Shown: piece by piece, positions 39,733 to 54,200 of the stretch
How the letters are laid out: the number at the start of each line of letters is the position of its first letter
How positions within the stretch are numbered: position 1 is the stretch's first letter
From: Candidatus Latescibacterota bacterium
GTDB taxonomy: Bacteria > Latescibacterota > UBA2968 > GCA-2709665
Length of the DNA stretch: 64,000 nt
Direction of reading: 5' to 3'
Assembly: GCA_965208835.1 (NCBI GenBank)
Contig: OZ242358.1
Span: 64,001 to 128,000, forward strand
The notes under the pieces: model-generated
Databases searched by the model: none
The model's input: the letters and a program-made list of their open reading frames with translations, nothing else
Told to the model about the DNA's origin: nothing
Made by a program: the position numbers and the translations under genes

Positions 39733-40027
39733 GCCGATTGTAGCAAATCAGCGGGCGGTCGCATCGAAGACTGCGCACAAAAAAAGCCCCGGAGATTCAT
39801 TTCTCGGGGTGTTGTAATTTCGACTTGAGATTGTCAAACACTTGCAGCGTGTCTCAATTGCTGTTCAAGTTCATTCGACGTTAGGCGAACAACCGATCGA
39901 TCACGTTCACCCCCGCGCTGATGAACCTAGGCTTGGCCATAGAAATCTGTGGATTTTCGAGTCAAATTTCAATCTACCTGCCTCTGCCTTTCAACTAAAC
40001 ACTTGATCGCGCGCGCAAGACGGGTTC

Positions 40028-40792
40028 TTATTCACCAGTATCTTCTAGCCTTTTGTCAAAATGACATCTTAGACCAATAAGGCTGGCAATTGACGCCACC
40101 GATTCTTCATTTGTAACAAACCATTCCCTACGTTTGTTTCTCCCGTTCCGATGGCCGATAGTACGTAGATGTTCCTGAATCTTCCCTTCGATTTCCTTCA
40201 AATCATCATTGGATTCCGTTACCCAAACCTGCAGAATCATTACAGGTTCAGGCATGCCGGTACTTTGTTTAACTGCGCGCTTAAAGGCATCCCTTGTTGA
40301 CATCCCGACTTTCAAATAGGTCCTCGCATCGCAATCTTCGTTCTGTTCAATTACAGGATGGTGCAGATAATGCGGATACGTATACACGTAAATTCCCGGA
40401 ACTAGCATTTTCGAAATATCCGTCGCCTGCTTTTCAACTTCCTCAACTTCCTCATCTATCGCCTGTACATTGGTCGCCCGAGTTTCACACTGCCCTGCCC
40501 TATATTCTAGAACCCTTTGGACTTCCAGAGAAAAATCGTGGCGCTTGACGAAACTTTTCAACGCCCCTGAAGTCTGTTTGGCGAGTGTAGGACTATTGGG
40601 CAGTACTCCTTGTTCTATCGCTCGAATGTAAGTCCTGTAAGTTGATACGAATCCAGATGAAGAGACCCCCAAGGATTCTGCGATTTCTTCAGCAGTCTTG
40701 CCTTGGTCCGTTAATCGCCACACATCGCCGAGCCGTCTGTTATCGTTAGTTAAGGCATTTCTGATTTCGTTCAAGAACGAATTTTCATCCAT
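40028..40792 (-). CDS. HTH + T5orf172/GIY-YIG-type nuclease-domain protein
   Basis: N-terminal GKTAEEIAESLGV; C-terminal PGIYVY...YLKVGMSTRD...R...STGMPE...REWF. Confidence 0.7.
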   Translation of the reverse strand: MDENSFLNEIRNALTNDNRRLGDVWRLTDQGKTAEEIAESLGVSSSGFVSTYRTYIRAIEQGVLPNSPTLAKQTSGALKSFVKRHDFSLEVQRVLEYRAGQCETRATNVQAIDEEVEEVEKQATDISKMLVPGIYVYTYPHYLHHPVIEQNEDCDARTYLKVGMSTRDAFKRAVKQSTGMPEPVMILQVWVTESNDDLKEIEGKIQEHLRTIGHRNGRNKRREWFVTNEESVASIASLIGLRCHFDKRLEDTGE

Positions 40793-41071
40793 CGTATCTT
40801 CCTTGAATATCTGTAAAATCTCCGTGACTTTCTCCAAGAGAGCGACACTTTGGCAGTAACCCCACCATCAGTTGTCGGAAGATCGGCGGTTAGCCAAGAT
40901 GTGACGTCTGTATGGCGAACGTCCTTACTTCTGAACGAGAAGACGTGTGCCCTCCCTTTGATGTCGGGTCTTGTATTGACCTGTACGAGTGGGTCTATGT
41001 GTCGATACCACGTTTACGGAAATTTGCGGCGCTCGACCTCTTCCATTCTTCCATTGTCGATTCACCCTATG

Positions 41072-43507
41072 TTAAGTCTCCAGCGCCGCAATTAGCTCCT
41101 GTGTGTCGAAGTTCAAGAGAAACTGCGCGTAAAATGTCTGGAAAAGGTCGCCGATGTAATCAGTTATTTCAACATGATGTTGATCTTCCCCATTAGCTTG
41201 CGTTACACCATACTTCCTATTCTTTGTGATCGTGTATAGGAACAGTGTGTGAAAGTACACAGCGGATACGTAACGTTTCTCGGCCACTTCGATAGTTTCC
41301 TCATTTTGCAATTTCGATCTATGCGAAAGCCAAACGCTACTATCCATGTTGATATACAAATCGCTTAGAGATTCCTCCGTGACTAGCGGATAGACAACTA
41401 CGTTGTGATCCATCGAAATCCCATTCTCTTCGAGCTGCTCCCACGTAATGCCATTGTTATGGCTTTCCTTGTAGATCATGTGCAGTTTGGGTAATCCAAG
41501 CCGATTATCCGGCTGTTCTCCCTTGTTTTGTTCTTTTGGCGTTTTAGTCGGCTCTGAAATCTTCACCATAAAAATCTGATCCAATGGACCACCGGGACTA
41601 GAGAGAGATGCGTGAAGCTTCACGGCATCGCCAACCTTAACTTCCATTGTAGGTTTAATGTTCACCTTGATGGTACCATTGTGCGGACTCGACTTTGTGA
41701 CGTTCAGGACTGTATCCACTGCCCCAGGCAGGCCGGGTCTATCGCCTCCCTCCTCGTCGTTGGGCGCTAAACCTAGCAGTCCTATGTGTAGTTCGCCGGG
41801 GTCGTCTACGCGATCAAAGTACTGGTCCTCAACATCGGTCGAAAAGCTTACCGTTCGTGAGCCACCCATTGGCAAACTGACCATTGGAATCTCTTCTAGG
41901 TTACGGGAGTTGACATCAAGACTGAACACGCTTGGATATCTCTGAGGAGAGAATGCGGGGGATTCGTTCGGTTTCTTTTGCCGCATCTTGCGTGCTTTTT
42001 CGTTTCTGCGTCCACTACGTTTGTCATGAAGCTTAAAGGATTGGCCAAGTAGCTCCGCTAACTCATTGCGAATAGGGAGATTTCGAGTAATGTTGCGTAC
42101 TAGATCTTCCGCATCCTTACTCTCGACAGTTATCGACGCTTTACGCCTTTTATGGATATCCTTCAACCGGCCATCCGCCAATAGTTGGGAAAGTCGCTGT
42201 CGGAGCTTTCTCGACTCATCTCCATCCTTCAAACGGTCTCGAGATGCCATGAATAGTTCATTTCGGCATTCTGTGCGGACCTCGGTGCAATCTACGTGAA
42301 CGAGTAGGTAGTCCTTCAGAAGAGGTAATTTGAGTGATCGTGTGATAAATTCCGAGGTATAATGCCCGTGAACCTGTCCGTGCACGGAGAAGAGAATCGA
42401 CATATTGTTCTTGAAAAACTCTCGCCGAATGGTCTCTCTAGTCTCCTTTACTGGCCGGTCGCCAACGCGCGCTTTAAAGACGTAGCATTTTACCCTAATG
42501 CGTCCAATATCCGCGTCCTCTATCTCTTCGGAAAAGCTCTGGTCAACGTATCGACTGTCGTCCTCCTCAAGGCGTCGCTTTAGCCCATAGAGGTGGCGCT
42601 GGAGATTACGGTCTTTGGGATAGCGCTCGGGCTTATCGATTGTAAACACCGGCAGCGCTGGATCGAATAGATACTCATTGATGCTCTGGTTCAGATCACG
42701 TGAAATAACCGAACGCGACCTACCGGGCAGATCGTACGAGTAGAGCTTGATAACAGTGCCCGTGATAAATCGCCGATCATAAAGCCCGAGGTCGAGGCTC
42801 TCGCACGTGAACGAAGGTATCTGATGGTCGACGATGAGGTACTCGTACCAAGTCGCCTTCTTTCTCTTTTCCTCTTCGGCGGTGAGAGGATGTCTACGAA
42901 CCAACGTGAAGCCAAGTGCTCCACGGCATGCGTCGAAACGCTTGGAGGCGATCAGCTGATAGCGTCGCCGACCGCAAAAAGCGACGGCACCGGCGCCGCC
43001 CATATTGTATTTGCCTTGGACAAAGTGAATATCATTCTTGTTGCCGCGCAATAGCGACAGAAACGTGTCCTCGAAATTCTCGGGTGCTTGGCCTTCGCCG
43101 TCATCGTAGATGATCAGCGAAGTTTCTCCCCGAGGTCCATCTGCCAGTATTTGCAATTTCTTCGCTTGCTCACGGCGCGCTTTGGCCAAGTCCCAGTTCT
43201 TGTGATTGGGAAAGAGCTGCCTTAGAGCATCGTCAATCGACCTTGGTGCCCTGTCTGACCGCGGATCGATACCGTGCTCATGGCATGCACGCATTAGGAT
43301 AGCGTCGATACCGTTGGTGATCTTTTCTATCAATGCAGGAATCGGCGAAGCTTGCTGATTTTCCACGACGCCAAAGTTGCTTTCGTTTTGGCCATATGGA
43401 CGCCAATTTACCGGACTATCAAGAAGCGAGTAGCCGTCGAGTGCTTTTTCGACGTCGTTCTCCACCTGTGCCTTGTAGAGTTTCCAAAAAAGGCCTTCAA
43501 GGTCCAT
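41072..43507 (-). CDS. GHKL (HATPase/MORC-like) ATPase, 811 aa
   Basis: Bergerat-fold motifs EKITNGIDA, YDDGEG, GKYNMGG, distal GT. Confidence 0.7.
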   Translation of the reverse strand: MDLEGLFWKLYKAQVENDVEKALDGYSLLDSPVNWRPYGQNESNFGVVENQQASPIPALIEKITNGIDAILMRACHEHGIDPRSDRAPRSIDDALRQLFPNHKNWDLAKARREQAKKLQILADGPRGETSLIIYDDGEGQAPENFEDTFLSLLRGNKNDIHFVQGKYNMGGAGAVAFCGRRRYQLIASKRFDACRGALGFTLVRRHPLTAEEEKRKKATWYEYLIVDHQIPSFTCESLDLGLYDRRFITGTVIKLYSYDLPGRSRSVISRDLNQSINEYLFDPALPVFTIDKPERYPKDRNLQRHLYGLKRRLEEDDSRYVDQSFSEEIEDADIGRIRVKCYVFKARVGDRPVKETRETIRREFFKNNMSILFSVHGQVHGHYTSEFITRSLKLPLLKDYLLVHVDCTEVRTECRNELFMASRDRLKDGDESRKLRQRLSQLLADGRLKDIHKRRKASITVESKDAEDLVRNITRNLPIRNELAELLGQSFKLHDKRSGRRNEKARKMRQKKPNESPAFSPQRYPSVFSLDVNSRNLEEIPMVSLPMGGSRTVSFSTDVEDQYFDRVDDPGELHIGLLGLAPNDEEGGDRPGLPGAVDTVLNVTKSSPHNGTIKVNIKPTMEVKVGDAVKLHASLSSPGGPLDQIFMVKISEPTKTPKEQNKGEQPDNRLGLPKLHMIYKESHNNGITWEQLEENGISMDHNVVVYPLVTEESLSDLYINMDSSVWLSHRSKLQNEETIEVAEKRYVSAVYFHTLFLYTITKNRKYGVTQANGEDQHHVEITDYIGDLFQTFYAQFLLNFDTQELIAALET

Positions 43508-43685
43508 AAAAGTACCTGATTTCGTAGGTGGACAATCTGCTCGTCTGGAATTACAGATCAGAAAAACTCGAGCCGGTAATCTCTAACCGTACCGTCCGGT
43601 GTGAATCAGCGACAGTACGTCGAACCCTTCTCTATCCTGAAACTCTCTTGCAGAACTTGGGCCTCACACCCGTTCGTTTCTCTGT

Positions 43686-44942
43686 TCATACCACCATCTC
43701 AGGCAGTATTAACGACTGATTACCGGTATCTTTGCGATACCGTTCCAAAAGTTCATTTTCGGTGAATTTCGACCTGCCAATCATATTTAGTAGAATTTCC
43801 CTCAATGTGACTTTATTGGAATTCAGGATCGCCCTTCTGCTTGGATCCCACATAAGACCTTTGTAGGGAGCCATGTTCAGGTTCCTTGGTAACTTGGCGG
43901 CCTGACGCACTGCCGCCGCGAAGGCCATGTCGCTTGTTAAGTTCGCTATGATCCTTAGGAAGATTTCCAATCCAATGGGTCGGAATAAAGCGTTGCCGCC
44001 ATGGCTTCCGCGATGTGCGCTCACCACCGATTCCGTATTCTTTGCAGCGAAGAACCCATTCAATTCGTCGAATTCTGTCCTTAGCCGAATAAACAGCTCG
44101 TTCGCATACTCGAAATACTCGTCCAATTTCGTGCGATCAGGACGTTTATTCTGCAGTTTGGACTTCGTGGTTTTCAGGGTCGTTTTAGTATCGGTAAACA
44201 AGATGGTCAAAAGGTCGTACAAGTTGCCGACGGTTGTCAGGCTAGTGGTATTTGAAACTGGCATATTGTTACTTGCCACAAATGCTAACCGGTCTCCACG
44301 AAACAAATCGGTCTCTTCAATCAGCCGACGAACACAGATAGCCATCACATCATCCTCGTCCAACGCAATGATGTCGCCTTTAGATACAGGTTTAGCAGTC
44401 TTGTTTAGGGTCGTAAAGAGCCTTCTTGTCCGCTCGAGGCCATTCTCCACGTTGTGAGCCACGATGATAACAGAAACTACATCGTAAGAGTCGTGCGCCA
44501 GTCCATCTTCGAGGGCTTTCTTGATACCTGCCAGCCGGTGTTGCCCGTCTAGCGCGAAAAGCTTCTCGTCTCCCGTTAGACTCAGAAATCCGACCGAAGC
44601 AACAGTTTCGTCAGCCAAGCCTTGGAGCTGATCGCTTTGCGTCATATTCCGAACATACGATAGTGCGTACCAGTTTGGCTGTCCACCGTATGTCGCAATG
44701 ACAAGAGAATTGAAAAACCGCTCAGGCTGCGTCTTGAGATACTCCGCAATCTGTACACTTCGGCCCCTTTTAAGTTGTCGTTGAATCATCTCGGAAAGCT
44801 TCTTACTCATATGTATGTCTTCTGCATAACGGACTCTTGAACTCAATTCTCTTATGTCCATGAGACAGGAGTAGTATACCCAATCACCCATCACACCTCG
44901 AAGGGCCGGTAGTACAAGCTCCCGCACTTGTCTCGTTGTCAC
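43686..44942 (-). CDS. DGQHR-domain (DndB-like) protein
   Basis: MIQRQL, FFNSLV, ALDGQHRL, F..LNKTAKPV. Confidence 0.85.
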   Translation of the reverse strand: MTTRQVRELVLPALRGVMGDWVYYSCLMDIRELSSRVRYAEDIHMSKKLSEMIQRQLKRGRSVQIAEYLKTQPERFFNSLVIATYGGQPNWYALSYVRNMTQSDQLQGLADETVASVGFLSLTGDEKLFALDGQHRLAGIKKALEDGLAHDSYDVVSVIIVAHNVENGLERTRRLFTTLNKTAKPVSKGDIIALDEDDVMAICVRRLIEETDLFRGDRLAFVASNNMPVSNTTSLTTVGNLYDLLTILFTDTKTTLKTTKSKLQNKRPDRTKLDEYFEYANELFIRLRTEFDELNGFFAAKNTESVVSAHRGSHGGNALFRPIGLEIFLRIIANLTSDMAFAAAVRQAAKLPRNLNMAPYKGLMWDPSRRAILNSNKVTLREILLNMIGRSKFTENELLERYRKDTGNQSLILPEMVV

Positions 44943-45460
44943 GGAAATGCCCTCTTCATGAACCTCACGTCTGCCGCAAGATCACCTACGGAAAACGGCG
45001 GCATCAGTGAATTAATGAGTTGCTTTTCAATCGTTAATAACTGATCTGAGGAAACGCCTTCATCCACGGGAGCGAAGAAAAACCGCAAGACTTCGCTCCA
45101 TGTGCCGATCATAGCGGAAATTCCAGGGCGTCGTCTAATTCTGCTTGGATAGAGGTAGTCCTTGTAACGTTCTCTAAGAGGACGCTGCGAATTCCGCCCT
45201 GCCACTCCTATGTAGAGGATGTACCCGTGCGGCGGCAGCACTCCGCTTAGTTGACAGACTGCAAAGGCATAAACACCTCGTTTGTCGTTAGGGACTTTCT
45301 CTATCTCTGTCGAACCGTAACTGATTGAGTCCCACACTAGGGAACGAGTACCTCGCCCGCTCGCCTTCATTTTCTCAGGAGACAACGTAAACTCAATCTC
45401 GTACTTGCGTAATTCTTGAGTCACCTTGTCGGCGAAATCTTTCAAGGGATCGAGTTTCAA
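44939..45460 (-). CDS. Small GIY-YIG-like nuclease
   Basis: RGVYAF...LYIG...LRERY...EKQLI; GTGA overlap with the DGQHR gene. Confidence 0.65.
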   Translation of the reverse strand: MKLDPLKDFADKVTQELRKYEIEFTLSPEKMKASGRGTRSLVWDSISYGSTEIEKVPNDKRGVYAFAVCQLSGVLPPHGYILYIGVAGRNSQRPLRERYKDYLYPSRIRRRPGISAMIGTWSEVLRFFFAPVDEGVSSDQLLTIEKQLINSLMPPFSVGDLAADVRFMKRAFP

Positions 45461-45479
45461 TCGTTTGTACCCTTGGGAT

Positions 45480-46322
45480 TTACTTGTGACATGCTAGACA
45501 GACCTTCGCTTTGCCGTACAGGTCATCAATATCGATTGGTTCAACATCTGGCCGAAGCGGATTCACCTGACGCTTGTTACGCATTTTTTCGAGACGTCTA
45601 GAATGTTCGGCCTCGATTTGCGCAATGCGCTCGGGTTTCGCGAGATCGTTGAGCGATTCACCCTGGCTCCACGTGAAGGGCGATCCGTGATCGATGGCGT
45701 TCTTTTCGTAGCGCTTGGCTTCCTCAAAGTACTCGGGGTGACGATCCATCAACCGTACCCATTCGATTTTCTGCTGAAAGAAACAGAAGGTGCATCCACT
45801 GCGCGTCCGCCACTCGTAATATCTCGGCAGCCCCAGTCCCGCCCCCTCCAAAATCTCTAACACACCGGATTTGTCAATCCCGTCATCCTTTAGCGGGAGC
45901 TTCACTACAAGATTGTCGCGTTTTGAGGTGTAGCCTTCCCGGTACTCCTCGTCCGCGCGGATGGCCACGTAGCTATATACCGTAACGCCACTATCTAGGA
46001 TTGGACGTATCCACCGCTCGAAAGGCCGCAGCTTGAGTTGCCGCGTGCACCAGCGGCTTTGCGCCGACGGTAGAAAATTGTTGTATTGCTTTAGCCAGAA
46101 GTCGAAATCGCGATCCGGATTCAGCCGCTCGATCGGCTTACCCAAGAATCCTTCTAGTTTTACCAGAAACTCATAAACTTCCGGTAATTCCTTGCCAGTA
46201 TCGGTAAAGAAGTAGCCGATGTCAAGTTCGGGATAGTTTTGACGCATGTATACGGCAAGCGCGGCGCTGTCTCGACCACCCGAGAGCCCCAAAACGTGTT
46301 TTTCGTTTCCGTTGTTATTCAC
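45480..46322 (-). CDS. sspD: SspD-like PAPS reductase-family / PP-loop protein
   Basis: SGGRDS PP-loop, DTGKE, RWCT, RSGCTFCF, terminal CLACHK. Confidence 0.85.
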   Translation of the reverse strand: MNNNGNEKHVLGLSGGRDSAALAVYMRQNYPELDIGYFFTDTGKELPEVYEFLVKLEGFLGKPIERLNPDRDFDFWLKQYNNFLPSAQSRWCTRQLKLRPFERWIRPILDSGVTVYSYVAIRADEEYREGYTSKRDNLVVKLPLKDDGIDKSGVLEILEGAGLGLPRYYEWRTRSGCTFCFFQQKIEWVRLMDRHPEYFEEAKRYEKNAIDHGSPFTWSQGESLNDLAKPERIAQIEAEHSRRLEKMRNKRQVNPLRPDVEPIDIDDLYGKAKVCLACHK

Positions 46323-49300
46323 GTGTTGGATCTCCTCTGACTCGACTGCGGCGAATTTCCGGAATCCAGATATCGAGCACTTAACTCGGCTAGGGCGGCG
46401 AGAATTACGTTGTGTCTTTCATGGCCGTTGCCTCTCAATGTTCCGTCTAATCGTTCAATCAACTCTTTTACTGCGGATTGATCCCCGTCGGTAATCTCGA
46501 ACTCGTTATGGACCAGATTTGGCTGCCCTTCCATACCGACAACGACTGCCATTGCGTGCCTCTTGTCCTTCCGGCCCTTGACGCGAGCGAACGCTTCTGC
46601 GCGTATGAACCGCTGGGCTAGAGCGGCAAGCTCGACCGACGCCCGATCGATGTCCGCATCAACCCAATCTCGAGGTGGTTTGTTGACGGCCATGCCTGCC
46701 AAACCCTCCACGTCCTCTTCTGTGCCTTCAAACTGCGCTACGCGAACGACAAAGGCCTCAAGGCGATGATCCCCGCCGAGGTCGCGGATGTTCGCCGAAC
46801 GGTCACGCAACTCTGCCAGCATCGAAGTCGAGTCGTTGGGAACTTGCAACTCCGCAAGCAACATCTCGCGAATCCGATTCAGCATTGTGGGAAATGCTTG
46901 GCATAACTCAGTCAAGCCTATTCGAATTCGGTCAGCAATCTTGTCTGTGGCTATCTCTGTTGGTATAACTGAAGAATCATCTAACACCTGCGGTAAATCG
47001 TCAAAGATCAGTCGATTCGGGTCGTTGGCCTGCTTCAGAAGCTGTCGTATACGCTTGGCGTTAGACGACAGACGCTGCGTCCGACCGACCCAGGGCGGCA
47101 GCTGGTCATAGATCGCCACGAGCCCTCTTGCGACGTCAATCGGTTCCAGGTTCGGCAAGGTGTTCGCTGCATCCAGATCGCGTACGATATCTGCCATATC
47201 TGCAAGCAGCCGACGCGAAACCGCTGACAGATCCATCCATCTCACCTGGATGTCAGCCGGGTTTTTAGCTAATACCTCCGCGTCCAGATCTGTAAAATAG
47301 GCTTGGAATATCCCCTGTCTGTAGAACGCGAGGACGTCGCGTTTTGAAAGTGCGAATGCCAGGGTTAAAATTGGCAGCAATCCGTCCTTTATGCCGAACG
47401 GAGCTTGTCGCCAAAGATCGTAGATCTCCGCAATCGATACTGATCTGTGGGATTCGGCTTCCAGGAACTCTGTCGCAGCCTCCCAAGCAGGGACGAGGTT
47501 GCATGGATCATCGCCATGGTCAGGCGGTGTAAAACGCAACCCATCTGGCGTACTCTGGTACAGTCCGCTTGCATTAAGTAGAGAGGCGAACAAGCCGCCT
47601 TCTGCGGGAAAATCCTCGATACCCAACCGCGGCCTGCCTTCGTATAGCGCCATCCGACGAAGCAAGGAATTTTGCGCAGCGATTGCGTTACTGGAGGGTC
47701 TGATTCGGTTTAATAACTCATTGTTGAGTTTTGGTGCCTTTTTGAATCTTTCGTCTGCGAAATCTGAAACGAGACTGTTTATTTCAGCATGGTCGAGCCG
47801 CTTTGACCGAAGTTCCTTTCCCTGCCATAGGGCATTCTCGAAAGCTCGGTCCAGTTCAACTTCGATTTTGCTTTGCAGGTCCGCGATGCTATCCTCAACT
47901 TCGCGCCGCCCAACACGGTCCCCCCGAAGCTCGGGCGTATTATCCCGGACATGCTCTAGGGCAAGCAACTCTCGCGCAAGAGTCGTAATTGTCCACGTCG
48001 ATCGCCGGGGGACGCCCACGATGACATCGCCGTCCTCTCCTCCCTTAACCGTACGTTCCGCAATTCGTTCGACAGTTTCGGGAGATTCGCCCGGTGTGGG
48101 TAGCGCGAGAAAGAATGATCCCATTGCGCCGTTACTAATATCACGCGTTTCCGCAACGTCCTCTAGGTCACGCAACGGAACGACAGTTGTGTCGAACCAT
48201 CGTATCGCACCGGTTTCGTGGTAATGTCGCTTGGCAATCACGGGCTGAAGCCCGGCGAGATCCGAAAGGCGGATGTGGTCAATCCGGTCTATCTCTCCAA
48301 ACGCATTATCTACGGCCCGCCTGATATCAAAGTCGCTTCCCTCGAAGATGCTGTATCCATTGCTGAATTTTCTGTGGATCACCAGCGAGGAGTCCTTCAG
48401 TTTACTCAGCGCCATCTGAATGGCTGTAGTACGTTGGTCACGAAGGGCTAGAACCAAGAGTTCCAGACTCGGCACGAGACCCGATCGTTCTCGGAACAGA
48501 TCGACCAGGCCGATCGTCTTGAGCAAACGTAACTCAAGTTCATCACCGCCTGACCCGTGACTTCGTTCCAGGGCGTCAATTGCCATCGCCCAGCGGTGAC
48601 CGTCCGAAGAAGCCATAATGGAAGGTTCCAGGTTCGCCCGAAGGTAGTCCCAAAGCAGCTCCGGCATATACAAATCATGCTCAGTGGCGGTTATCAGGAA
48701 GTCCTGAAATCCGAACGGCTCTGTGGAGTTTAAAAAGCCAAAGATGCTACGCTGATTCTGGCCGAAACTCCGCCGTGAGATGGGTCCGAGCAAGCAAGCT
48801 ACGATTGGGTGCAACGGCCAACATCTTTGCAACACTTCAGACGTTTGCGTGTGATGGCCGAGTGCGGCGGCCTTCTTGAACAGTGGCGTATTCTTTTGAG
48901 GCACTTGATCGCTCTCTATCGCCCGTCCCAAGAGCTCTAATTGCTCGTCAGGTCCAACATTAATCGGCAGGTCTATGAATCGACCTTGAACCTTTGCCCA
49001 CTCGTCCCGCACCTCACGTGAGAGCCGGTTTGCATACTCTTCAAACGCCTGGTGCAGAATCCCCACGACAATCAGCCGATTGTTGCTTCGCGAGGCAATT
49101 TCCGCCAATTGTTGGAAAAAGTAGATGTCCGTGTCCTCGTACGCGGCGCCTTCCAGCAACTTCCCCATTTCGTCCAAGAAGACAACAAGCCCGCCAGACG
49201 TGCGGGGATTCCGTCGGGCGACCCTTAACAGGACGTCATAGACGGCCTCGTCGCTCCAGGGGCCAGCTGCGCCATTTCGTATAAAGCGGGCACGCTCAAT

Positions 49301-49693
49301 CGCCTCACCGACCACTTGGGCGGGTCTATCACGCCTCCCCACGACGGGCAGGATCCGCCAACCTTTGGCTTGGGGAGGCAAAGCAGTCCAGATCGCCTCG
49401 GCTGTTTGAAAACCGAGCATCCGGGCAGTCGAGTTTCTGAGCTCGGCGTCACCATTCAGCACCGCGCTCAGTGCAACCACGAGGCTCGACTTCCCAGAAC
49501 CATAGGGTCCCGTCCACGTAAATGCGGCCTGTTCGGTTTTCCGGACGTGCTGTGCCATCGTCTCAAGTACGAGAGCGGAGGACTGGGGACAGATGAAACC
49601 CGTGAGAGCCGCAGGATCGGAAAGGTCAGTGTCGATTCGGATTGACCTTCGGAAGCGGCGGCTAATCTGGACACGATCAGCCAATACTGTCAC
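46319..49693 (-). CDS. sspC: SspC-like P-loop ATPase (1124 aa)
   Basis: RSIRI.TD, GPYGSGKS, VFLDEMGK, WAKVQGRF, WPLHP, GQNQRSIFGFL. Confidence 0.85.
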   Translation of the reverse strand: MTVLADRVQISRRFRRSIRIDTDLSDPAALTGFICPQSSALVLETMAQHVRKTEQAAFTWTGPYGSGKSSLVVALSAVLNGDAELRNSTARMLGFQTAEAIWTALPPQAKGWRILPVVGRRDRPAQVVGEAIERARFIRNGAAGPWSDEAVYDVLLRVARRNPRTSGGLVVFLDEMGKLLEGAAYEDTDIYFFQQLAEIASRSNNRLIVVGILHQAFEEYANRLSREVRDEWAKVQGRFIDLPINVGPDEQLELLGRAIESDQVPQKNTPLFKKAAALGHHTQTSEVLQRCWPLHPIVACLLGPISRRSFGQNQRSIFGFLNSTEPFGFQDFLITATEHDLYMPELLWDYLRANLEPSIMASSDGHRWAMAIDALERSHGSGGDELELRLLKTIGLVDLFRERSGLVPSLELLVLALRDQRTTAIQMALSKLKDSSLVIHRKFSNGYSIFEGSDFDIRRAVDNAFGEIDRIDHIRLSDLAGLQPVIAKRHYHETGAIRWFDTTVVPLRDLEDVAETRDISNGAMGSFFLALPTPGESPETVERIAERTVKGGEDGDVIVGVPRRSTWTITTLARELLALEHVRDNTPELRGDRVGRREVEDSIADLQSKIEVELDRAFENALWQGKELRSKRLDHAEINSLVSDFADERFKKAPKLNNELLNRIRPSSNAIAAQNSLLRRMALYEGRPRLGIEDFPAEGGLFASLLNASGLYQSTPDGLRFTPPDHGDDPCNLVPAWEAATEFLEAESHRSVSIAEIYDLWRQAPFGIKDGLLPILTLAFALSKRDVLAFYRQGIFQAYFTDLDAEVLAKNPADIQVRWMDLSAVSRRLLADMADIVRDLDAANTLPNLEPIDVARGLVAIYDQLPPWVGRTQRLSSNAKRIRQLLKQANDPNRLIFDDLPQVLDDSSVIPTEIATDKIADRIRIGLTELCQAFPTMLNRIREMLLAELQVPNDSTSMLAELRDRSANIRDLGGDHRLEAFVVRVAQFEGTEEDVEGLAGMAVNKPPRDWVDADIDRASVELAALAQRFIRAEAFARVKGRKDKRHAMAVVVGMEGQPNLVHNEFEITDGDQSAVKELIERLDGTLRGNGHERHNVILAALAELSARYLDSGNSPQSSQRRSNT

Positions 49694-50655
49694 GCAACGT
49701 CCTCCTCGCGACCTGAACCATTATAATTCACCTTCAAGAGATTCAATTTTTCCTCGGTCGTAAGCTCGCGTTCCCTGATGAGCTGCTTCAACCCGGCAGT
49801 CTCTGACCACTGATAGATACCCTCAGTAACGGTCTCGAGCCGTCCTAAGAGGTCGACAAGATCATTTTCAGCCAGAAGAAAGACCCTGCCCGGCGACCCG
49901 GGTTCGTGCGACAGAGCTTCGAAGGACAGGGTGTTAGCGGTCTTTGAAATACCAGACCAAAAGTCGGTCACGGCATAGGCGAATACACCTGCACCAAGCG
50001 ACGGCTTTGGGCCACGCACGAATCTGAAGCCGTCACGTCGGCCAACCTGCTTGATCAGACCAAGTTCCGTAAGGGGCGATTCAAGGGCGTCTTCGTAGCT
50101 CGCCCGCCGCGACACTGGTTGTGCGACGTATGTGCGCACAAAGCAAGACACGTCGCGTCTGATTGTAGCCAGGGACGACCGTGCCCACCCTATTTCCTCG
50201 GTCAGATTTGCTACTCCGCGGGTTAGCTCATCGCGTTCGAACAAGAGGGCTGGGAAGTGATTAAATGCCCAGAACCACGTCGTTTTATCTTTCCGACCAC
50301 AAAGGCGCCAATGGATGAACCACGATGTCGCGGGGTTTTCCATATATTTGTCGAGACTTCTCTCACCGAATATCAAGTCGCCGATTTCTGTACATCGGAT
50401 ACGTCGTTCGCCAGTAACCTCTTCGATGACTCCGGAAGCAATGGCCCAATGGCGCATTGAAGCAACCATGTTCTTGCCGACCCCGAATCGCGCGATTGCA
50501 TCGTCTGCCGTGAATACCGACAGATTGTTCTCGTCTCCTTCGGTCTCCCGAACGGCATCACATGCCTTCTTGAGCCAACCATAACGGAGCGGAAACGTCT
50601 CGTGCCCAGACAGTTGCGGTTGGTAGCCTTCTTCGTATAGAGGACCTCGGCCCAT
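49690..50655 (-). CDS. sspB: SspB-like DUF4007 protein
   Basis: SGHETFPLRYGWLKK, FGVGKNMV.SMRHW, LESPLTELGL, ETAGL. Confidence 0.88.
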   Translation of the reverse strand: MGRGPLYEEGYQPQLSGHETFPLRYGWLKKACDAVRETEGDENNLSVFTADDAIARFGVGKNMVASMRHWAIASGVIEEVTGERRIRCTEIGDLIFGERSLDKYMENPATSWFIHWRLCGRKDKTTWFWAFNHFPALLFERDELTRGVANLTEEIGWARSSLATIRRDVSCFVRTYVAQPVSRRASYEDALESPLTELGLIKQVGRRDGFRFVRGPKPSLGAGVFAYAVTDFWSGISKTANTLSFEALSHEPGSPGRVFLLAENDLVDLLGRLETVTEGIYQWSETAGLKQLIRERELTTEEKLNLLKVNYNGSGREEDVA

Positions 50656-50683
50656 CGTCTCTCCTACTGGATGGAACGTCCAG

Positions 50684-50717
50684 CTTGACAATAGTCACAA
50701 AACTGAGTATTGTCAAG
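50684..50717. promoter_or_regulatory. Inverted repeat containing opposed TTGACA boxes between divergent sspB and sspA
   Basis: CTTGACAATAGTCA-CAAAAC-TGAGTATTGTCAAG (13 of 14 paired). Confidence 0.6.
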
Positions 50718-50843
50718 GTTGAACTGGCGGCAGGCTCCAGGAGCAACACGAAACAGAAAACAAATTCGGCAGAAATCGGAATAAGCATTTGTTTTTATTT
50801 GGGAAGACATCTCGATCGGAAAATCCTTTTCGCCGAACTTAAC

Positions 50844-52022
50844 ATGGTCAGACAAGAAACGATCTACGCAGATTATCAAGCCACAACGCCGGTCGATCCC
50901 CGGGTGCTGGAGAAAATGGACCCTCATTGGCGCGAATCGTTCGGCAATCCCCACTCTAGCGACCATGTCGTGGGCTGGAGAGCCAACGAAGCCGTACACG
51001 AGGCGGGCGAGTCGATCGCGGGGCTGATTGGCGCTGACGTCGATGAAGTGGTTTTCACGTCAGGGGCTACAGAGGCGAACAACCTCGCCCTTCAGGGTCT
51101 GGCCCGGCGGGCGCCGGACGGTCGTGATCGCATTCTGGTCAGCGCAATCGAGCACAAGTGTGTTTTGGCGGCGACGAGGGCGTTAGCTCAGAATCAGGGT
51201 ATCGCTGTCGAGGCGATTCCAGTGGACCACGACGGGTTCGTGGATTTCGATGCATTGCAGAAGCTTGTCGACGAACGCGTCCTTATGGCCTCAGTGATGG
51301 CTGTCAACAATGAAGTGGGAACTATTCAGGATATTCCGCAGATTGCCGAAATGCTCGCTTCATACGGGATCCTGTTTCATTGTGACGCGGCTCAGGCGCC
51401 GTGCGCGATGGACGTGAGTGAGCTTGCCGCGCACGCCGACCTGATCAGTCTATCGGCACATAAATTTCACGGCCCACAGGGTATAGGAGCATTGTATATC
51501 CGGCGCGATCTCAAGGACTCTGTCGAGCCGATGATATATGGGGGCGGACAGCAGGAGGGCCTTCGTTCAGGTACGGTCCCAATGCCGCTTTGCGTTGGGA
51601 TGGGAGTCGCTGCGGAGATTGTTGCCAGCGACGAATCGAAGGAGGAGCGCACGAGGGTCGCCGACTTGCGGGATTCATTCATTGGCCTGCTCGAAAAAGG
51701 GGACTTCACCATCACCGTCAACGGACCAGTCGGACAGAGCCGCCATCCTGGCAACGCCAACATCTGTTTTGAAGGTTGCGATGCGCAAGATATCCTTGGC
51801 GTCCTTCAGCCACGACTCGCGGCATCTACCGGCGCGGCATGTACGACTGGCATTCCGGAACCGTCCCACGTGCTCCGCGCGCTCGGGTTGTCGGACGCAC
51901 AGAGCGAGGCCTCGGTCCGCTTCAGCTTTGGCCGATTCACGACTTACGAAGAAATCGAAACCGCGGCTCGGCTGGTAAGCGAGGCTGTTGCGACCGTTTC
52001 CGTCGAAACTACTATATCATAA
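50844..52022 (+). CDS. sspA: Cysteine desulfurase (SspA/DndA/IscS-like)
   Basis: DYQATTP, FTSGATEANN, SAHK (PLP lysine), STGAACT (catalytic Cys). Confidence 0.88.
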   Translation: MVRQETIYADYQATTPVDPRVLEKMDPHWRESFGNPHSSDHVVGWRANEAVHEAGESIAGLIGADVDEVVFTSGATEANNLALQGLARRAPDGRDRILVSAIEHKCVLAATRALAQNQGIAVEAIPVDHDGFVDFDALQKLVDERVLMASVMAVNNEVGTIQDIPQIAEMLASYGILFHCDAAQAPCAMDVSELAAHADLISLSAHKFHGPQGIGALYIRRDLKDSVEPMIYGGGQQEGLRSGTVPMPLCVGMGVAAEIVASDESKEERTRVADLRDSFIGLLEKGDFTITVNGPVGQSRHPGNANICFEGCDAQDILGVLQPRLAASTGAACTTGIPEPSHVLRALGLSDAQSEASVRFSFGRFTTYEEIETAARLVSEAVATVSVETTIS

Positions 52023-52091
52023 ATAGTATTTATCCACGTTATTTTACTCCGATGCGTAGATCCTGGAACGCCTTGCAGTTTTAGGACTCAC

Positions 52092-52134
52092 GACAAAGAA
52101 CCCCCGGAGATTCTTCTCTCGGGGGTTCTTTGTC
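52092..52134. terminator. Hairpin between convergent sspA and relB
   Basis: GACAAAGAACCCCC...GGGGGTTCTTTGTC. Confidence 0.75.
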
Positions 52135-52187
52135 TGGCTCCGACTTTATGTAAAAACCACTCGCTACTTGGTGCGCTGAACCTCAGA

Positions 52188-52445
52188 TCAACTGTGCCGC
52201 TCCTTTAGCGCGTCCAGGTCGTCGTATTCGTTTAGGCCCTCACCTGTCTCTGCTTGCCTCATTGCCTCTATGGTCTCCTTTTTGGGAATCCTCACCGGGA
52301 AGGGCAAGCCTCCGTGCAGGATGACCTGGACATAGAACAGCGTGATCGCATCGGTTGGGGACAATCCGAGCTTCGAAAATATCGCTTCGGCATGGGTTTT
52401 CAATTCAGGTTCAACTCTGGCCCGGATGAATTCCGTCTTGGCCAT
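52188..52445 (-). CDS. RelB/DinJ family antitoxin (no intact toxin adjacent)
   Basis: IRARVEPELK..AE.IF..LGL..TDAI.LF...GLPF. Confidence 0.85.
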   Translation of the reverse strand: MAKTEFIRARVEPELKTHAEAIFSKLGLSPTDAITLFYVQVILHGGLPFPVRIPKKETIEAMRQAETGEGLNEYDDLDALKERHS

Positions 52446-52581
52446 GGACACCTCCTTCCTTGTCCAAATGTATCACAACCGGGATACAAATTCAACCGGT
52501 TCCCGTCGGCTGTCCACTAGACCTATTCTATCCACCGCAGTCCCGCACTCAACCGCAGGAGTCTAACTGTAAAGGGAGACT

Positions 52582-53187
52582 ATGGAAGCCTGGGAGAACC
52601 TTCGAAGTGAAGGCAAGTCGTATATTTGGACGGCGTTAAAATTACAAGATTACATGTTTGGGGTGGATCATATCCCACGAGAGGCAATGTTTGGTTTATT
52701 CTCCAAACTAGACAAGAACTTCCCAGAAAAAAAACAATGGTGTTTCTATCGAGGACCACTTGAGTTCCAGCATCTGTGGGAAAACCTTTTCCATGATCAC
52801 ATGGAGACAGGATGTAGTCCTTCAGATATTGTTCTCTTGTCTCTTGGGATTGAGATGTGCCTGAAGAGCATTTTCTTGATGGAAGAGAAGTCCAAGCCTA
52901 AGCCTGATCATGACCTTTACGGGCACTTTGATGTATTGAAAGAAGAAACCAAGGACGTTCTTAGAGAAAAGTACAAGTTTCTTTTCCTAAAATTAAACAA
53001 AGATCTCCGGGAAAATTGGCATCTAGCCGAATCTGACAAGGTAGATGTTATACTCAAAGAACATCGTAATGCCTTCAAAGAATTAAGATATCGCTTTGAG
53101 TGGCCACGAGGGACCGGATACAGCATGAATCCAGTATGCATCAGAATGGCGGCTCTTGCCATCGTAGATTACATAACTAATCCATAA
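52582..53187 (+). CDS. AT-rich HEPN-like domain protein
   Basis: IEMCLKS...HDL...F...LRY pattern typical of HEPN folds. Confidence 0.5.
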   Translation: MEAWENLRSEGKSYIWTALKLQDYMFGVDHIPREAMFGLFSKLDKNFPEKKQWCFYRGPLEFQHLWENLFHDHMETGCSPSDIVLLSLGIEMCLKSIFLMEEKSKPKPDHDLYGHFDVLKEETKDVLREKYKFLFLKLNKDLRENWHLAESDKVDVILKEHRNAFKELRYRFEWPRGTGYSMNPVCIRMAALAIVDYITNP

Positions 53188-53394
53188 ACTTGGATTTTTC
53201 GTAGAACAGATGATCGTTTTTTGGCACTATACCGTGTAAGCCCCTTTTATTTTAACGCGATGTCTTTTATGAATTTAATGTATCATGTGATGCAACCTGC
53301 GTCGCGTCAGGAGTTGCGACGACGGTCTGCCTGTGCCATCCTTTCATTCTGAGCGAATTCGAAGAATCTCCCGTCCGTTCCGCGCAGGAAGTGT

Positions 53395-54128
53395 ACGTGC
53401 TGCCTCGCAGGAAACGCCACGTGCAAATCGCTTGCGGTTGATCCCATGCTGCAGTAGATCCTTCGTCGGCCTTGGGGGCACCCTTCGACAGGCTCAGGGC
53501 AAGTCCTCTGGATGACAGTTTTGGCGCACGGGGACGGCAACGTGGGCAGACAGGAATGTCCGCCCCACCTTCACACCGGCTTTCTCAGAGTGTGAGCCCG
53601 CGAGTGCCGACACCTTTTTTTTACAGACCTGACTGGCAACACAGCCGCTCCCCTCCCCGTGCCGGGGAGGGGCCGGGGGAGGGGTCTGCGATACAGAGTT
53701 AGCCTGTATCCGCAGTGCATCCCACAACCAGGAGTTATGACCCAGTTACATCCCGCTCGCCACTTGTCCGGGATTCTTTTTTGTTCCGGGCGGAAGATTA
53801 CGGTATATTTATCGTTCTCTGATTCGTCAGCCTGACGGCTTCCTCAGCATGGCTGTGTGAGCGCCCGAGTGGCTGACGCGTTTCCGGGATAACTCTGCGG
53901 TGGAGGCGGACGTGCTGCCTCTCAGGTTACGCCACGTGCAAGTCACACTGGGTCTATCCGATGTTGCAGTAGATCCTTCGTCGGCCTGGGGGCCTCCTCT
54001 GGATGACAGTCTGGGCGTAGGTCGGGGCTCAGTGTTTCGACGATGTTTGTCGCAAAACATGCCATTCTTAACGACGTGGGCAGACAGGAATGTCCGCCCC
54101 ACCTTCACACCGGCTTCCTCAGAGTGTG
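53395..54128 (+). repeat. Two copies of a ~200-bp composite REP-like repeat (53395-53594 and 53910-54128)
   Basis: Shared blocks ACGCCACGTGCAA, GCAGTAGATCCTTCGTCGGCCT, CCTCTGGATGACAGT and GTGGGCAGACAGGAATGTCCGCCCCACCTTCACACCGGCTT. Confidence 0.8.
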
Positions 54129-54200
54129 GGCGCGCGTGTGACCGATGCGGGGCTGATTGATGACCCTGGAACCCTGGCTATTGGGAGGATTGATTCGAAA

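Follow-up and report, generated by a model that had tools for sequence, protein, structure and literature searches.

Known partners of SspBCD and the locus under study

In the 2021 survey of the sspBCD gene clusters involved in phosphorothioate (PT) modification of DNA (PMC8092258), which covers 2678 clusters, 7.3% of the clusters are accompanied by SspFGH and 7.4% by SspE, viz. ~15% together. Of these two arms, SspE contains a ParB-like (DUF262) NTPase joined to a nuclease (PMC8092258, PMC9646914), and SspFGH forms a restriction cassette located directly downstream of sspD (PMC8092258). An alternative PT arm is present in the DndCDEA-PbeABCD systems, and its component PbeA is described as a helicase-motif protein (Xiong et al. 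2019, PMC6459918). The MORC/paraMORC proteins of restriction-modification operons, which combine GHKL and S5 domains, were described by Iyer, Abhiman & Aravind 2008 (PMC2292703). The role of the GHKL/MORC-like class in prokaryotic immunity has been largely inferred from gene context. In the present work, we have examined a locus from a Candidatus Latescibacterota bacterium (assembly GCA_965208835.1, contig OZ242358.1), in which a set of sspABCD genes is followed by four other genes, referred to here as p5, p6, P7 and p8. The stretch of DNA that was analysed (hereafter the window) is 64,000 nucleotides long and corresponds to positions 64-128 kb of a genome consisting of a single closed contig of 5.18 Mb (97.8% complete). 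As judged from the gene neighbourhoods described below, the GHKL ATPase P7 is a near-obligate neighbour of sspBCD, and it is this protein, instead of the DGQHR protein p6, which is the Ssp-specific element.

Linkage of P7 to the ssp genes

The gene for P7 (positions 41072-43507, minus strand) encodes a protein of 811 aa with a GHKL ATPase domain and a transducer (S5-like) domain. A scan for P7 over one genome per species gave 329 relatives. From these, 80 loci with flanks of up to 10 kb were retained and probed by tblastn with the proteins of the window. SspD was detected in 68 of the 80 loci, SspC in 66, SspB in 62 and SspA in 24, and the corresponding numbers for the downstream proteins were 25 for p6, 14 for the 173-aa protein p5 and none (0/80) for p8. 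When only those loci are considered in which P7 is flanked by 9 kb or more on either side, sspC/D is present in 52 of 53, and the remaining P7 loci devoid of sspC/D end at contig edges. In the sole full-flank exception (L015), sspD is located 2 Mb away in the same genome, and of the four edge-cut exceptions that were checked, three carry sspD at a contig edge or on a different contig and the fourth lacks it. By the titles of their records, the P7 loci range over more than 10 phyla.

The same association is seen when genomes are sampled by phylum. Among 168 genomes from the phylum of the window, SspD is found in 44 and a full-length P7 in 5, and in every one of these five the two genes are separated by 0.2-2.5 kb. 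In a sample of 401 Bacteroidota genomes, SspD is found in 17 and P7 in 4, and all four belong to the 17; in three of them P7 is located 1.6-4.8 kb from sspD, and in the fourth it is on a separate contig, with both genes at contig ends. A strong P7 match is present in none of the SspD-free genomes in either sample (0/124 in the phylum of the window and 0/384 in the Bacteroidota sample). With both samples pooled, P7 is present in 9 of the 61 SspD-bearing genomes, a share no smaller than those of SspE (7.4%) and SspFGH (7.3%) among the clusters surveyed in 2021. It is a conserved candidate partner, spanning phyla, for sspBCD clusters that have no known arm.

Among the candidates scored, 2588 homologues of P7 were obtained at E<=1e-3, and those bearing a name are all called 'hypothetical protein'. 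The family is unnamed in the literature searched and has no model in PADLOC 2.0.0, none of whose models matched P7 at E<=0.01. No GHKL partner of Ssp or PT systems is named in the searched texts, supplementary tables aside; term searches in the available text of PMC10853773, PMC2292703, PMC8011034, PMC12914056 and the Tiamat preprint gave no link of this kind, and the terms Dnd, phosphorothio and PAPS are absent from that of PMC2292703.

Several other features were observed in the P7 loci. In L030, L037, L040, L043, L048, L066, L070, L077 and L079, a DUF262-only protein (NsnA-like, 95 bits) and a Ser/Thr kinase (mad6-like) are encoded between sspD and P7, constituting a further cassette of the ParB-like plus effector kind. 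A two-gene set, consisting of a ~790-aa HATPase_c_3 + HEF_HK + HATPase_c protein and a ~640-aa protein without a family match, recurs beside sspBCD, with or without P7, in L008, L009, L021, L022, L033, L080, L081, L086, L093, L095 and L100. In L017, the methyltransferase adjoining P7 matches the mad2 model. The P7 homologue at L029:10001-12427 (55% identity) contains one in-frame stop codon, which may indicate a pseudogene or a sequencing error.

The modification module and exchange of arms at a chromosomal hotspot

The eight open reading frames (ORFs) of this locus were confirmed at the coordinates and strands given in a preliminary description of the window, and the identities of the encoded proteins were examined by means of PADLOC 2.0.0, Pfam and NCBIfam models. 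SspA, a divergently transcribed cysteine desulfurase (50685/50841-52022, plus strand), matches its PADLOC model with 431 bits over profile positions 1-372 of 374 and Pfam Aminotran_5 with 261 bits. The other three genes are on the minus strand and match their PADLOC models over the full length, viz. SspB (49690-50691) with 344 bits (Pfam DUF4007, 290 bits), the 1124-aa P-loop ATPase SspC (46319-49693) with 1246 bits, and SspD, a PAPS-reductase-type ATP pyrophosphatase (45480-46322), with 451 bits (Pfam PAPS_reduct, 28.6 bits). By these profile matches, the full SspABCD set is present at full length, and the identities proposed earlier for its four members are borne out. The true start of SspA is probably the ATG at 50841 and not the TTG at 50685, because the PADLOC match to the TTG-started ORF does not begin before residue 61, and relatives are 392-408 aa long. 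The coupled run on the minus strand noted in the preliminary description was also confirmed, with 4-nt GTGA stop/start overlaps for SspB/SspC, SspC/SspD and p5/p6 and a gap of 19 nt from sspD to p5; the distances from p6 to P7 and from P7 to p8 are 178 nt and 234 nt, respectively.

The genomic setting of these genes indicates that the locus is a horizontally acquired PT defence island of ~12.3 kb at a chromosomal hotspot. As stated earlier for this region, its GC content is lower than that of its surroundings, being 0.47-0.57 over 40-53 kb versus 0.63-0.66 in the left and 0.59-0.62 in the right flank. A 30-nt direct repeat (family D3), whose left (39780-39809) and right (52095-52124) copies are 87% identical, brackets positions 39810-52094. 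The left copy marks the left border of the island and doubles as a terminator-like hairpin after the gene for a 987-aa flanking protein. In the empty site of the genome G054 (L104), homology to the window is lost at 39805. The island is flanked by the gene for this 987-aa PD40/Omp85-like protein and by an ATP sulfurylase gene, and the spacing between these two flanks is 14.3 kb in the window, 1.7-3.3 kb in nine genomes of the genus, 5.6 kb in one and 14-18 kb in three. At this flank site, Ssp islands are present in 4 of the 15 genomes of the genus, each with a different arm (window 39806-53763; L104, L101, L103, L088).

These islands amount to a natural experiment, since sister genomes have near-identical sspABCD genes at one and the same chromosomal site but differ in the arm that goes with them. 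The island of G050 contains the GIY-YIG and DGQHR genes and P7, and that of G048 contains P7 together with a double-HATPase/HEF_HK-like pair and is devoid of p5/p6. In G048, which is the closest relative, P7 along with 150 nt upstream of it is located right after sspD, and its DNA is 83% identical to the window from 43659 to 41078; the conserved stretch upstream of P7 (43508-43659, minus strand) is a possible promoter belonging to the P7 cassette itself. In G052, DNA identity to the window is 89.9% from sspA up to the final bases of sspD, where the homology ends, and the genes that follow encode a helicase, an MzaB-like GHKL protein and a PLD nuclease. As the homology with G052 ends at sspD, the arm has been exchanged behind an unchanged modification module, and the occurrence of near-identical sspABCD genes without P7 in this genome argues that SspBCD does not need P7 to work. 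In other sister loci, the same slot after sspD is occupied by SspFGH, by Pbe-like genes or by the double-HATPase pair.

Two observations were made on other loci from this phylum. In L088, L091, L094, L096 and L099, all of which are without P7, the genes after sspD encode an SF2 helicase (ResIII), a HATPase_c_3 protein resembling MzaB and a PLD nuclease; the GIY-YIG/DGQHR pair is present in some of these loci and absent from others. In L092 (G037:C2:3540000-3559999), two sspD genes of opposite orientation are separated by ~5 kb, in which the frames of SspC and SspB are shortened; this locus has the appearance of a double Ssp cluster that has decayed or been rearranged.

Search for the known partner arms

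None of the proteins p5-p8 matched a PADLOC model for SspE, SspF, SspG, SspH or Pbe at E<=0.01. With the same library, the locus L090 of a sister genome gave 713 bits for SspF, 627 for SspG and 2084 for SspH, and the locus L089 of another gave 497 bits for PbeA and 160 for PbeC; for the control loci L089 and L130, the scores of the Pbe models were 497-791 bits. Because the same models score strongly on genuine SspFGH and Pbe genes, the absence of an arm match for p5-p8 is a real negative, and the earlier statement that the island contains no SspE-like protein is upheld.

The search was extended to the genome as a whole. Three models for SspE gave 38 bits or nothing, and only two generic DUF262 proteins surfaced; the SspE models score 34-65 bits on these over partial stretches, whereas HEC-06 scores 162 bits, and HEC-06/Orf5 provide the better fit. 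No match for SspF was found in the genome, and for SspH only the FtsK-like C-terminus was matched (profile positions 1447-1750, in an 815-aa frame), a match which also arises in 8 of 14 control genomes; SspG was not included in the genome-wide search. SspE was therefore rejected as the arm of this system because the island has no match and the DUF262 proteins of the genome fit HEC-06/Orf5 better, and SspFGH because p5-p8 are unmatched, SspF is lacking from the genome and the SspH match is generic. An arm of the Pbe type was likewise rejected, since p5-p8 show no match to PbeA or PbeC, which were not searched genome-wide, and the controls were positive. In the case of BREX type 4 (BrxP/BrxC/PglZ/BrxL; PMC12914056), SspC resembles BrxC (374 bits) and SspD resembles BrxP (37 bits). 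However, PglZ has Pfam matches at just two places in the genome, 2.91 Mb and 1.94 Mb, both far from the window, and the one frame whose PglZ domain exceeds the curated cut-off is at a distance of 2.8 Mb; this system too was rejected, as the island contains no PglZ, in agreement with the preliminary description (BrxL was not searched for).

The locus nevertheless shares features with the described PT systems. It has the same sspABCD genes as SspABCD-SspE, and the ParB/Srx-like protein p6 and the GIY-YIG candidate p5 repeat the NTPase-nuclease logic of SspE (PMC8092258, PMC9646914). However, its island is without a DUF262-DUF1524 protein, the sensor and the nuclease are encoded by separate genes, the nuclease is of another fold and a GHKL ATPase has been added. 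The position of the downstream genes resembles that of the SspFGH cassette, and L090, a locus from the same class, has genuine SspFGH in this slot after SspBCD proteins of 74-86% identity. The DndCDEA-PbeABCD systems are related to it in that Pbe-like genes follow sspBCD in L089 and a pair of the p5/p6 kind is found between pbeACD and dndBCD in L130; a PbeA or PbeC homologue, however, was not found among p5-p8.

Predicted fold of P7 and the superfamily to which it belongs

The AlphaFold model of P7 has a pLDDT of 74.9, and Foldseek searches with it retrieved GyrB 43K, Hsp90 N+M, Topo VI-B and the MutL NTD with E values of 1.6e-8 to 5e-7 and a probability of 1.00. According to this model, the N-terminal half of P7 is a GHKL domain followed by a transducer (S5-like) domain. 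After these come a helical linker, modelled in part with low confidence, then an Ig-like beta-sandwich and, at the C-terminus, a helix/hairpin domain without a specific match. In 39 P7 sequences (51-89% identity), residues E61, N65, D68, D135, G137, G139, G165, N168, G170 and G173 are invariant, and the ExxxNxxD, DxGxG and glycine-rich motifs are kept in 39/39; we take these residues to correspond to the Bergerat motifs I-III. The GHKL assignment made earlier thus stands on the predicted fold and the family motifs, although the score of P7 itself against Pfam HATPase_c_3 (17.9 bits) is under the cut-off of 25. The C-terminal half, which is conserved, also contains an invariant charged cluster around H404, D406, E417, R423, D424 and K427, and an acidic motif at 558-566. 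A search of PDB sequences with the P7 profile gave no match at E<=1, Foldseek with a separate model of residues 515-811 found only a generic Ig-like beta-sandwich and left the last helical/hairpin domain unmatched, and in the ESM Atlas the C-terminal part fell in unnamed clusters only.

With a limit of E<=1e-3, the superfamily that includes P7 numbers 2269 representatives, and with E<=1e-30 it numbers 802; many of its proteins of 750-800 aa match only positions 1-575 of the P7 profile. Seven loci of distant paralogues (24-37% identity) were examined; none of the fetched regions contains ssp genes, and in five of the seven a DNA methyltransferase is found beside the P7-like gene. In L122, an N6/N4 methyltransferase overlaps the P7-like gene by 4 nt; in L123, an N6/N4 methyltransferase is accompanied by a further GHKL gene; and in L107, a methyltransferase adjoins the P7-like gene. 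The neighbours in L119 are a C5 methyltransferase, a MutH-like nuclease, a metallophosphoesterase and a second GHKL gene, and in L106 a full-length DndB gene lies directly upstream and a methyltransferase 1 kb away. A PIN gene and a PP-loop ATPase cluster are found near the P7-like gene of L121, and that of L120 has no recognisable neighbours. These gene contexts suggest that the P7 superfamily is tied to DNA modification and that PT replaces methylation in the P7 clade. The likeness to the MORC/paraMORC proteins (PMC2292703) concerns both architecture, viz. an N-terminal GHKL domain with ATP motifs, an S5/transducer domain and a family-specific C-terminal extension, and gene context, as the genes of both groups stand beside those for DNA modification, helicases and nucleases and have a wide but patchy distribution. 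P7 differs from them in that its partner is the PT machinery and not a methyltransferase, and in its sub-threshold score against Pfam HATPase_c_3.

The PP-loop ATPase of L121 (L121:11920-12807 and downstream) is NAD_synthase/Asn_synthase-like, and along with the PIN gene and several unannotated genes by the P7-like gene it could form another, non-methyl DNA modification module.

The p5/p6 pair and p8

The gene p5 (44939-45460, minus strand; 173 aa) is a GIY-YIG family nuclease candidate as judged from its family alignment, in which G62, Y64, Y83, G85, R98 and Y102 are invariant and E145 is near-invariant. Of the 17 members of this family, nine match GIY_YIG_2 (PF20815; best E 6.8e-5) and three match GIY-YIG (PF01541; best E 5.9e-6), the family profile matches the UvrC GIY-YIG domain in the PDB (1yd6, E 9e-4), and the ESM Atlas groups p5 with a cluster named 'putative GIY-YIG'. 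The description of this protein as GIY-YIG-like is thus supported by the family profile and motifs, but the p5 protein of the window itself has no above-threshold Pfam match. The neighbouring gene p6 (43686-44942, minus strand; 418 aa) encodes a ParB/Srx-like protein whose DGQHR label is secure, since TIGR03187 (DGQHR domain) gives 113 bits versus a cut-off of 58.85, and Pfam DndB (PF14072) gives 90.3 bits. However, p6 scores only 57.2 bits with the DndB equivalog TIGR03233 (cut-off 328) and 30.7 bits with TIGR04172 (cut-off 450), and on these scores it is a paralogue of DndB and not DndB itself. No other DndB-family gene is present in this genome. It thus shares with DndB and the PT-associated DGQHR proteins a DGQHR domain above the curated cut-offs and an occurrence in PT loci, but differs from DndB in being paired with a nuclease gene and in coexisting with a true DndB in L130. 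The preliminary description had also counted PbeA among the DGQHR proteins, which is at variance with its description in the literature (PMC6459918).

In 18 of the 80 P7 loci, p5 and p6 adjoin each other and in most cases overlap by 4 nt, and in 4 more a second GIY-type small gene (c22) precedes the DGQHR gene; the position of the pair relative to P7 varies, being either before or after it. Of the 22 matches for p6-type genes in the phylum, 12 adjoin sspD, one is ambiguous and nine are elsewhere, and at least 3 of the 7 non-Ssp loci that were fetched are Dnd loci. In L130, the gene order is PbeA, PbeC, PbeD, GIY-YIG, p6-like, true DndB, DndC and DndD, and the bona fide DndB (519 bits) directly adjoins the p6-like protein (73 bits). 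In L126 and L127, two others of these seven loci, the gene before the p6-like gene is an HNH or SAVED-HNH gene. As the pair is found beside both Ssp and Dnd genes, and HNH or SAVED-HNH replaces GIY-YIG in L126 and L127, p5/p6 is, by its gene contexts, a facultative module of a nuclease and a ParB-like NTPase with a swappable nuclease, which is mainly an add-on of the Ssp and Dnd PT systems. A search for fused forms found a natural fusion of p5 and p6 in a single 598-aa protein. A complex prediction for p6 and p5 with paired 17-row alignments gave a score of 0.03 versus a mark of 0.32, and speaks neither for nor against binding.

The gene p8 (40028-40837, minus strand; 269 aa) encodes an HTH + T5orf172 protein, whose T5orf172 label was borne out (PF10544, 31.7 bits versus a cut-off of 20). 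Its homologues occur in 25 of the 168 genomes from the phylum, and in none of the 10 genomes having both genes (0/10) is p8 beside sspD. It is also missing from the sister island of G050. In view of these distributions and of its absence from all 80 P7 loci, p8 was rejected as a part of the Ssp system, and by gene context it is an unlinked passenger of the island. The earlier proposal that some or all of the four downstream genes form a different restriction or sensing arm therefore holds, as far as genome comparison can tell, for P7, which has sspC/D beside it in nearly all full-flank loci, and for p5/p6, which recur beside Ssp genes, but not for p8.

Proposed mechanism and alternative explanations

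The reading which we favour, and which we regard as reasonably probable, is that SspABCD acts as a writer, that P7 is its cognate ATP-gated reader as well as an effector or effector-recruiting clamp, that p5/p6 form a facultative SspE-like nicking arm, and that p8 is a passenger. In this scheme, SspABCD would install PT marks on the host DNA, as expected from family membership, and P7 would behave as an ATP-gated DNA clamp, in the manner of the MORC/paraMORC/MutL class from restriction-modification operons. The binding of ATP would dimerise the N-terminal gate of P7 on DNA, its Ig-like and C-terminal domains would read the presence of the host mark, and DNA free of this mark would be damaged by P7 itself or by an associated nuclease. 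The p5/p6 pair would follow the logic of SspE, viz. a ParB-like sensor NTPase plus a nuclease, split over two genes, and serve as a facultative second arm. The dependence on PT may take either form, with PT activating the arm or PT blocking it. A bolder version, which we advance tentatively and consider rather unlikely, is that P7 represents a hitherto undescribed class of restriction enzymes which read DNA modifications, and in which the GHKL clamp would itself be the nuclease by virtue of an unrecognised C-terminal site; the candidate active-site residues are the H404/D406/E417/R423/D424/K427 cluster or the acidic motif at 558-566. If this were true, different clades would be wired to different marks, viz. 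base methylation in the distant paralogues and the backbone phosphorothioate in the P7 clade, and P7 would be among the commonest partners of SspBCD.

Several observations weigh against the proposed scheme. A nuclease fold was not recognised in P7, either in the PDB profile search or by Foldseek on the full and C-terminal models. P7 is the sole gene beside sspBCD in several loci (e.g. L010 and L014), and it therefore cannot always rely on p5. The identities of P7 and SspBCD are incongruent, with P7 being 89% but SspC only 60% identical in L008, and SspD 93% but P7 only 53% identical in L076, from which it follows that these modules recombine freely and need not touch each other. Further, the 80 loci were chosen by means of P7, and kin genomes are not independent. 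With regard to the p5/p6 pair, the nine p6-type DGQHR genes (of 22) that are away from Ssp include some in loci without recognised PT genes, and in the p5-p6 fusion the p5 similarity ends ~25 residues before the p6 part, which could be due to a frameshift artefact.

The lack of a recognised nuclease domain in P7 also bears on the alternative that P7 is not an effector but a regulator or cofactor of modification, which would, e.g., determine how densely or at which targets PT is installed, a role played by DndB in Dnd systems, and that restriction is due to p5/p6 only. GHKL proteins are often conformational switches, and the P7 paralogues beside methyltransferases fit a modification helper equally well as a restriction subunit. 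However, the 89.9%-identical sspABCD genes of G052, and 39 of the 44 SspD genomes in the phylum, are without P7; P7 fills the slot where the SspFGH and Pbe-like restriction genes are located in sister loci; and L010 and L014, where only P7 accompanies sspBCD, would have no restriction arm. We hold this alternative to be improbable. It could also be envisaged that the downstream genes are independent defence genes that share a hotspot and act independently of PT, as would suit a hotspot whose content is swappable, as seen in 4 of the 15 genomes of the genus, a T5orf172 gene that is indeed independent, the p6-type DGQHR genes in non-PT contexts and the mosaic phylogenies of the modules. Co-residence in a hotspot, however, leaves unexplained why P7 is accompanied by sspC/D in 52 of 53 loci from more than 10 phyla, why four of the five exceptions that were checked do have sspD in their genome, and why strong P7 matches are absent from the SspD-free genomes (0/124 and 0/384), and this explanation has in our judgement only a small probability.

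The remaining alternative is that this is an epigenetic or redox PT system without a restriction arm, where P7, p5 and p6 would serve in the repair or maintenance of PT-containing DNA by a MutL-like handling of nicks. The resemblance of the P7 fold to MutL and the match of the p5 profile to the UvrC nuclease domain are in accordance with it, as is the fact that most of the surveyed sspBCD loci have no known arm (7.3% SspFGH and 7.4% SspE of 2678; PMC8092258). However, the island is low in GC, mobile and of patchy occurrence (4/15 genus genomes), its slot is shared with proven restriction modules, and the P7 paralogues are found in operons resembling those of restriction-modification systems, along with a MutH-like nuclease, PIN and further GHKL genes, so that we deem a repair function very improbable. 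Apart from the choice between these explanations, the present locus contributes three observations, viz. the exchange of cassettes at a single hotspot, a pair of genes tied to Ssp as well as Dnd systems, and the methyltransferases found near the distant P7 paralogues.

Other features of the region

Between sspB and sspA, promoter-like sites at 50685-50716 overlap on both strands, with 10/12 consensus matches each, and make up a palindrome. Such sites are not in excess over the whole region (13 versus 10.5 +/- 3.2 in shuffled sequences), and as a lead only, this palindrome could be an operator, e.g. for the DGQHR protein. Between the right repeat and the native flank, low-GC DNA contains a 201-aa ORF (52582-53187, plus strand) with no Pfam match, and this stretch is also missing from the empty site of G054. 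Upstream of the ATP sulfurylase gene (53379-54140), a segment of ~230 nt is duplicated ~515-534 nt apart (families D1, D2 and D4); its hairpin-containing 50-nt core recurs at numerous positions in the genomes of the genus (short matches of 26-50 nt with 76-100% identity), and it looks like a REP-like dispersed element.

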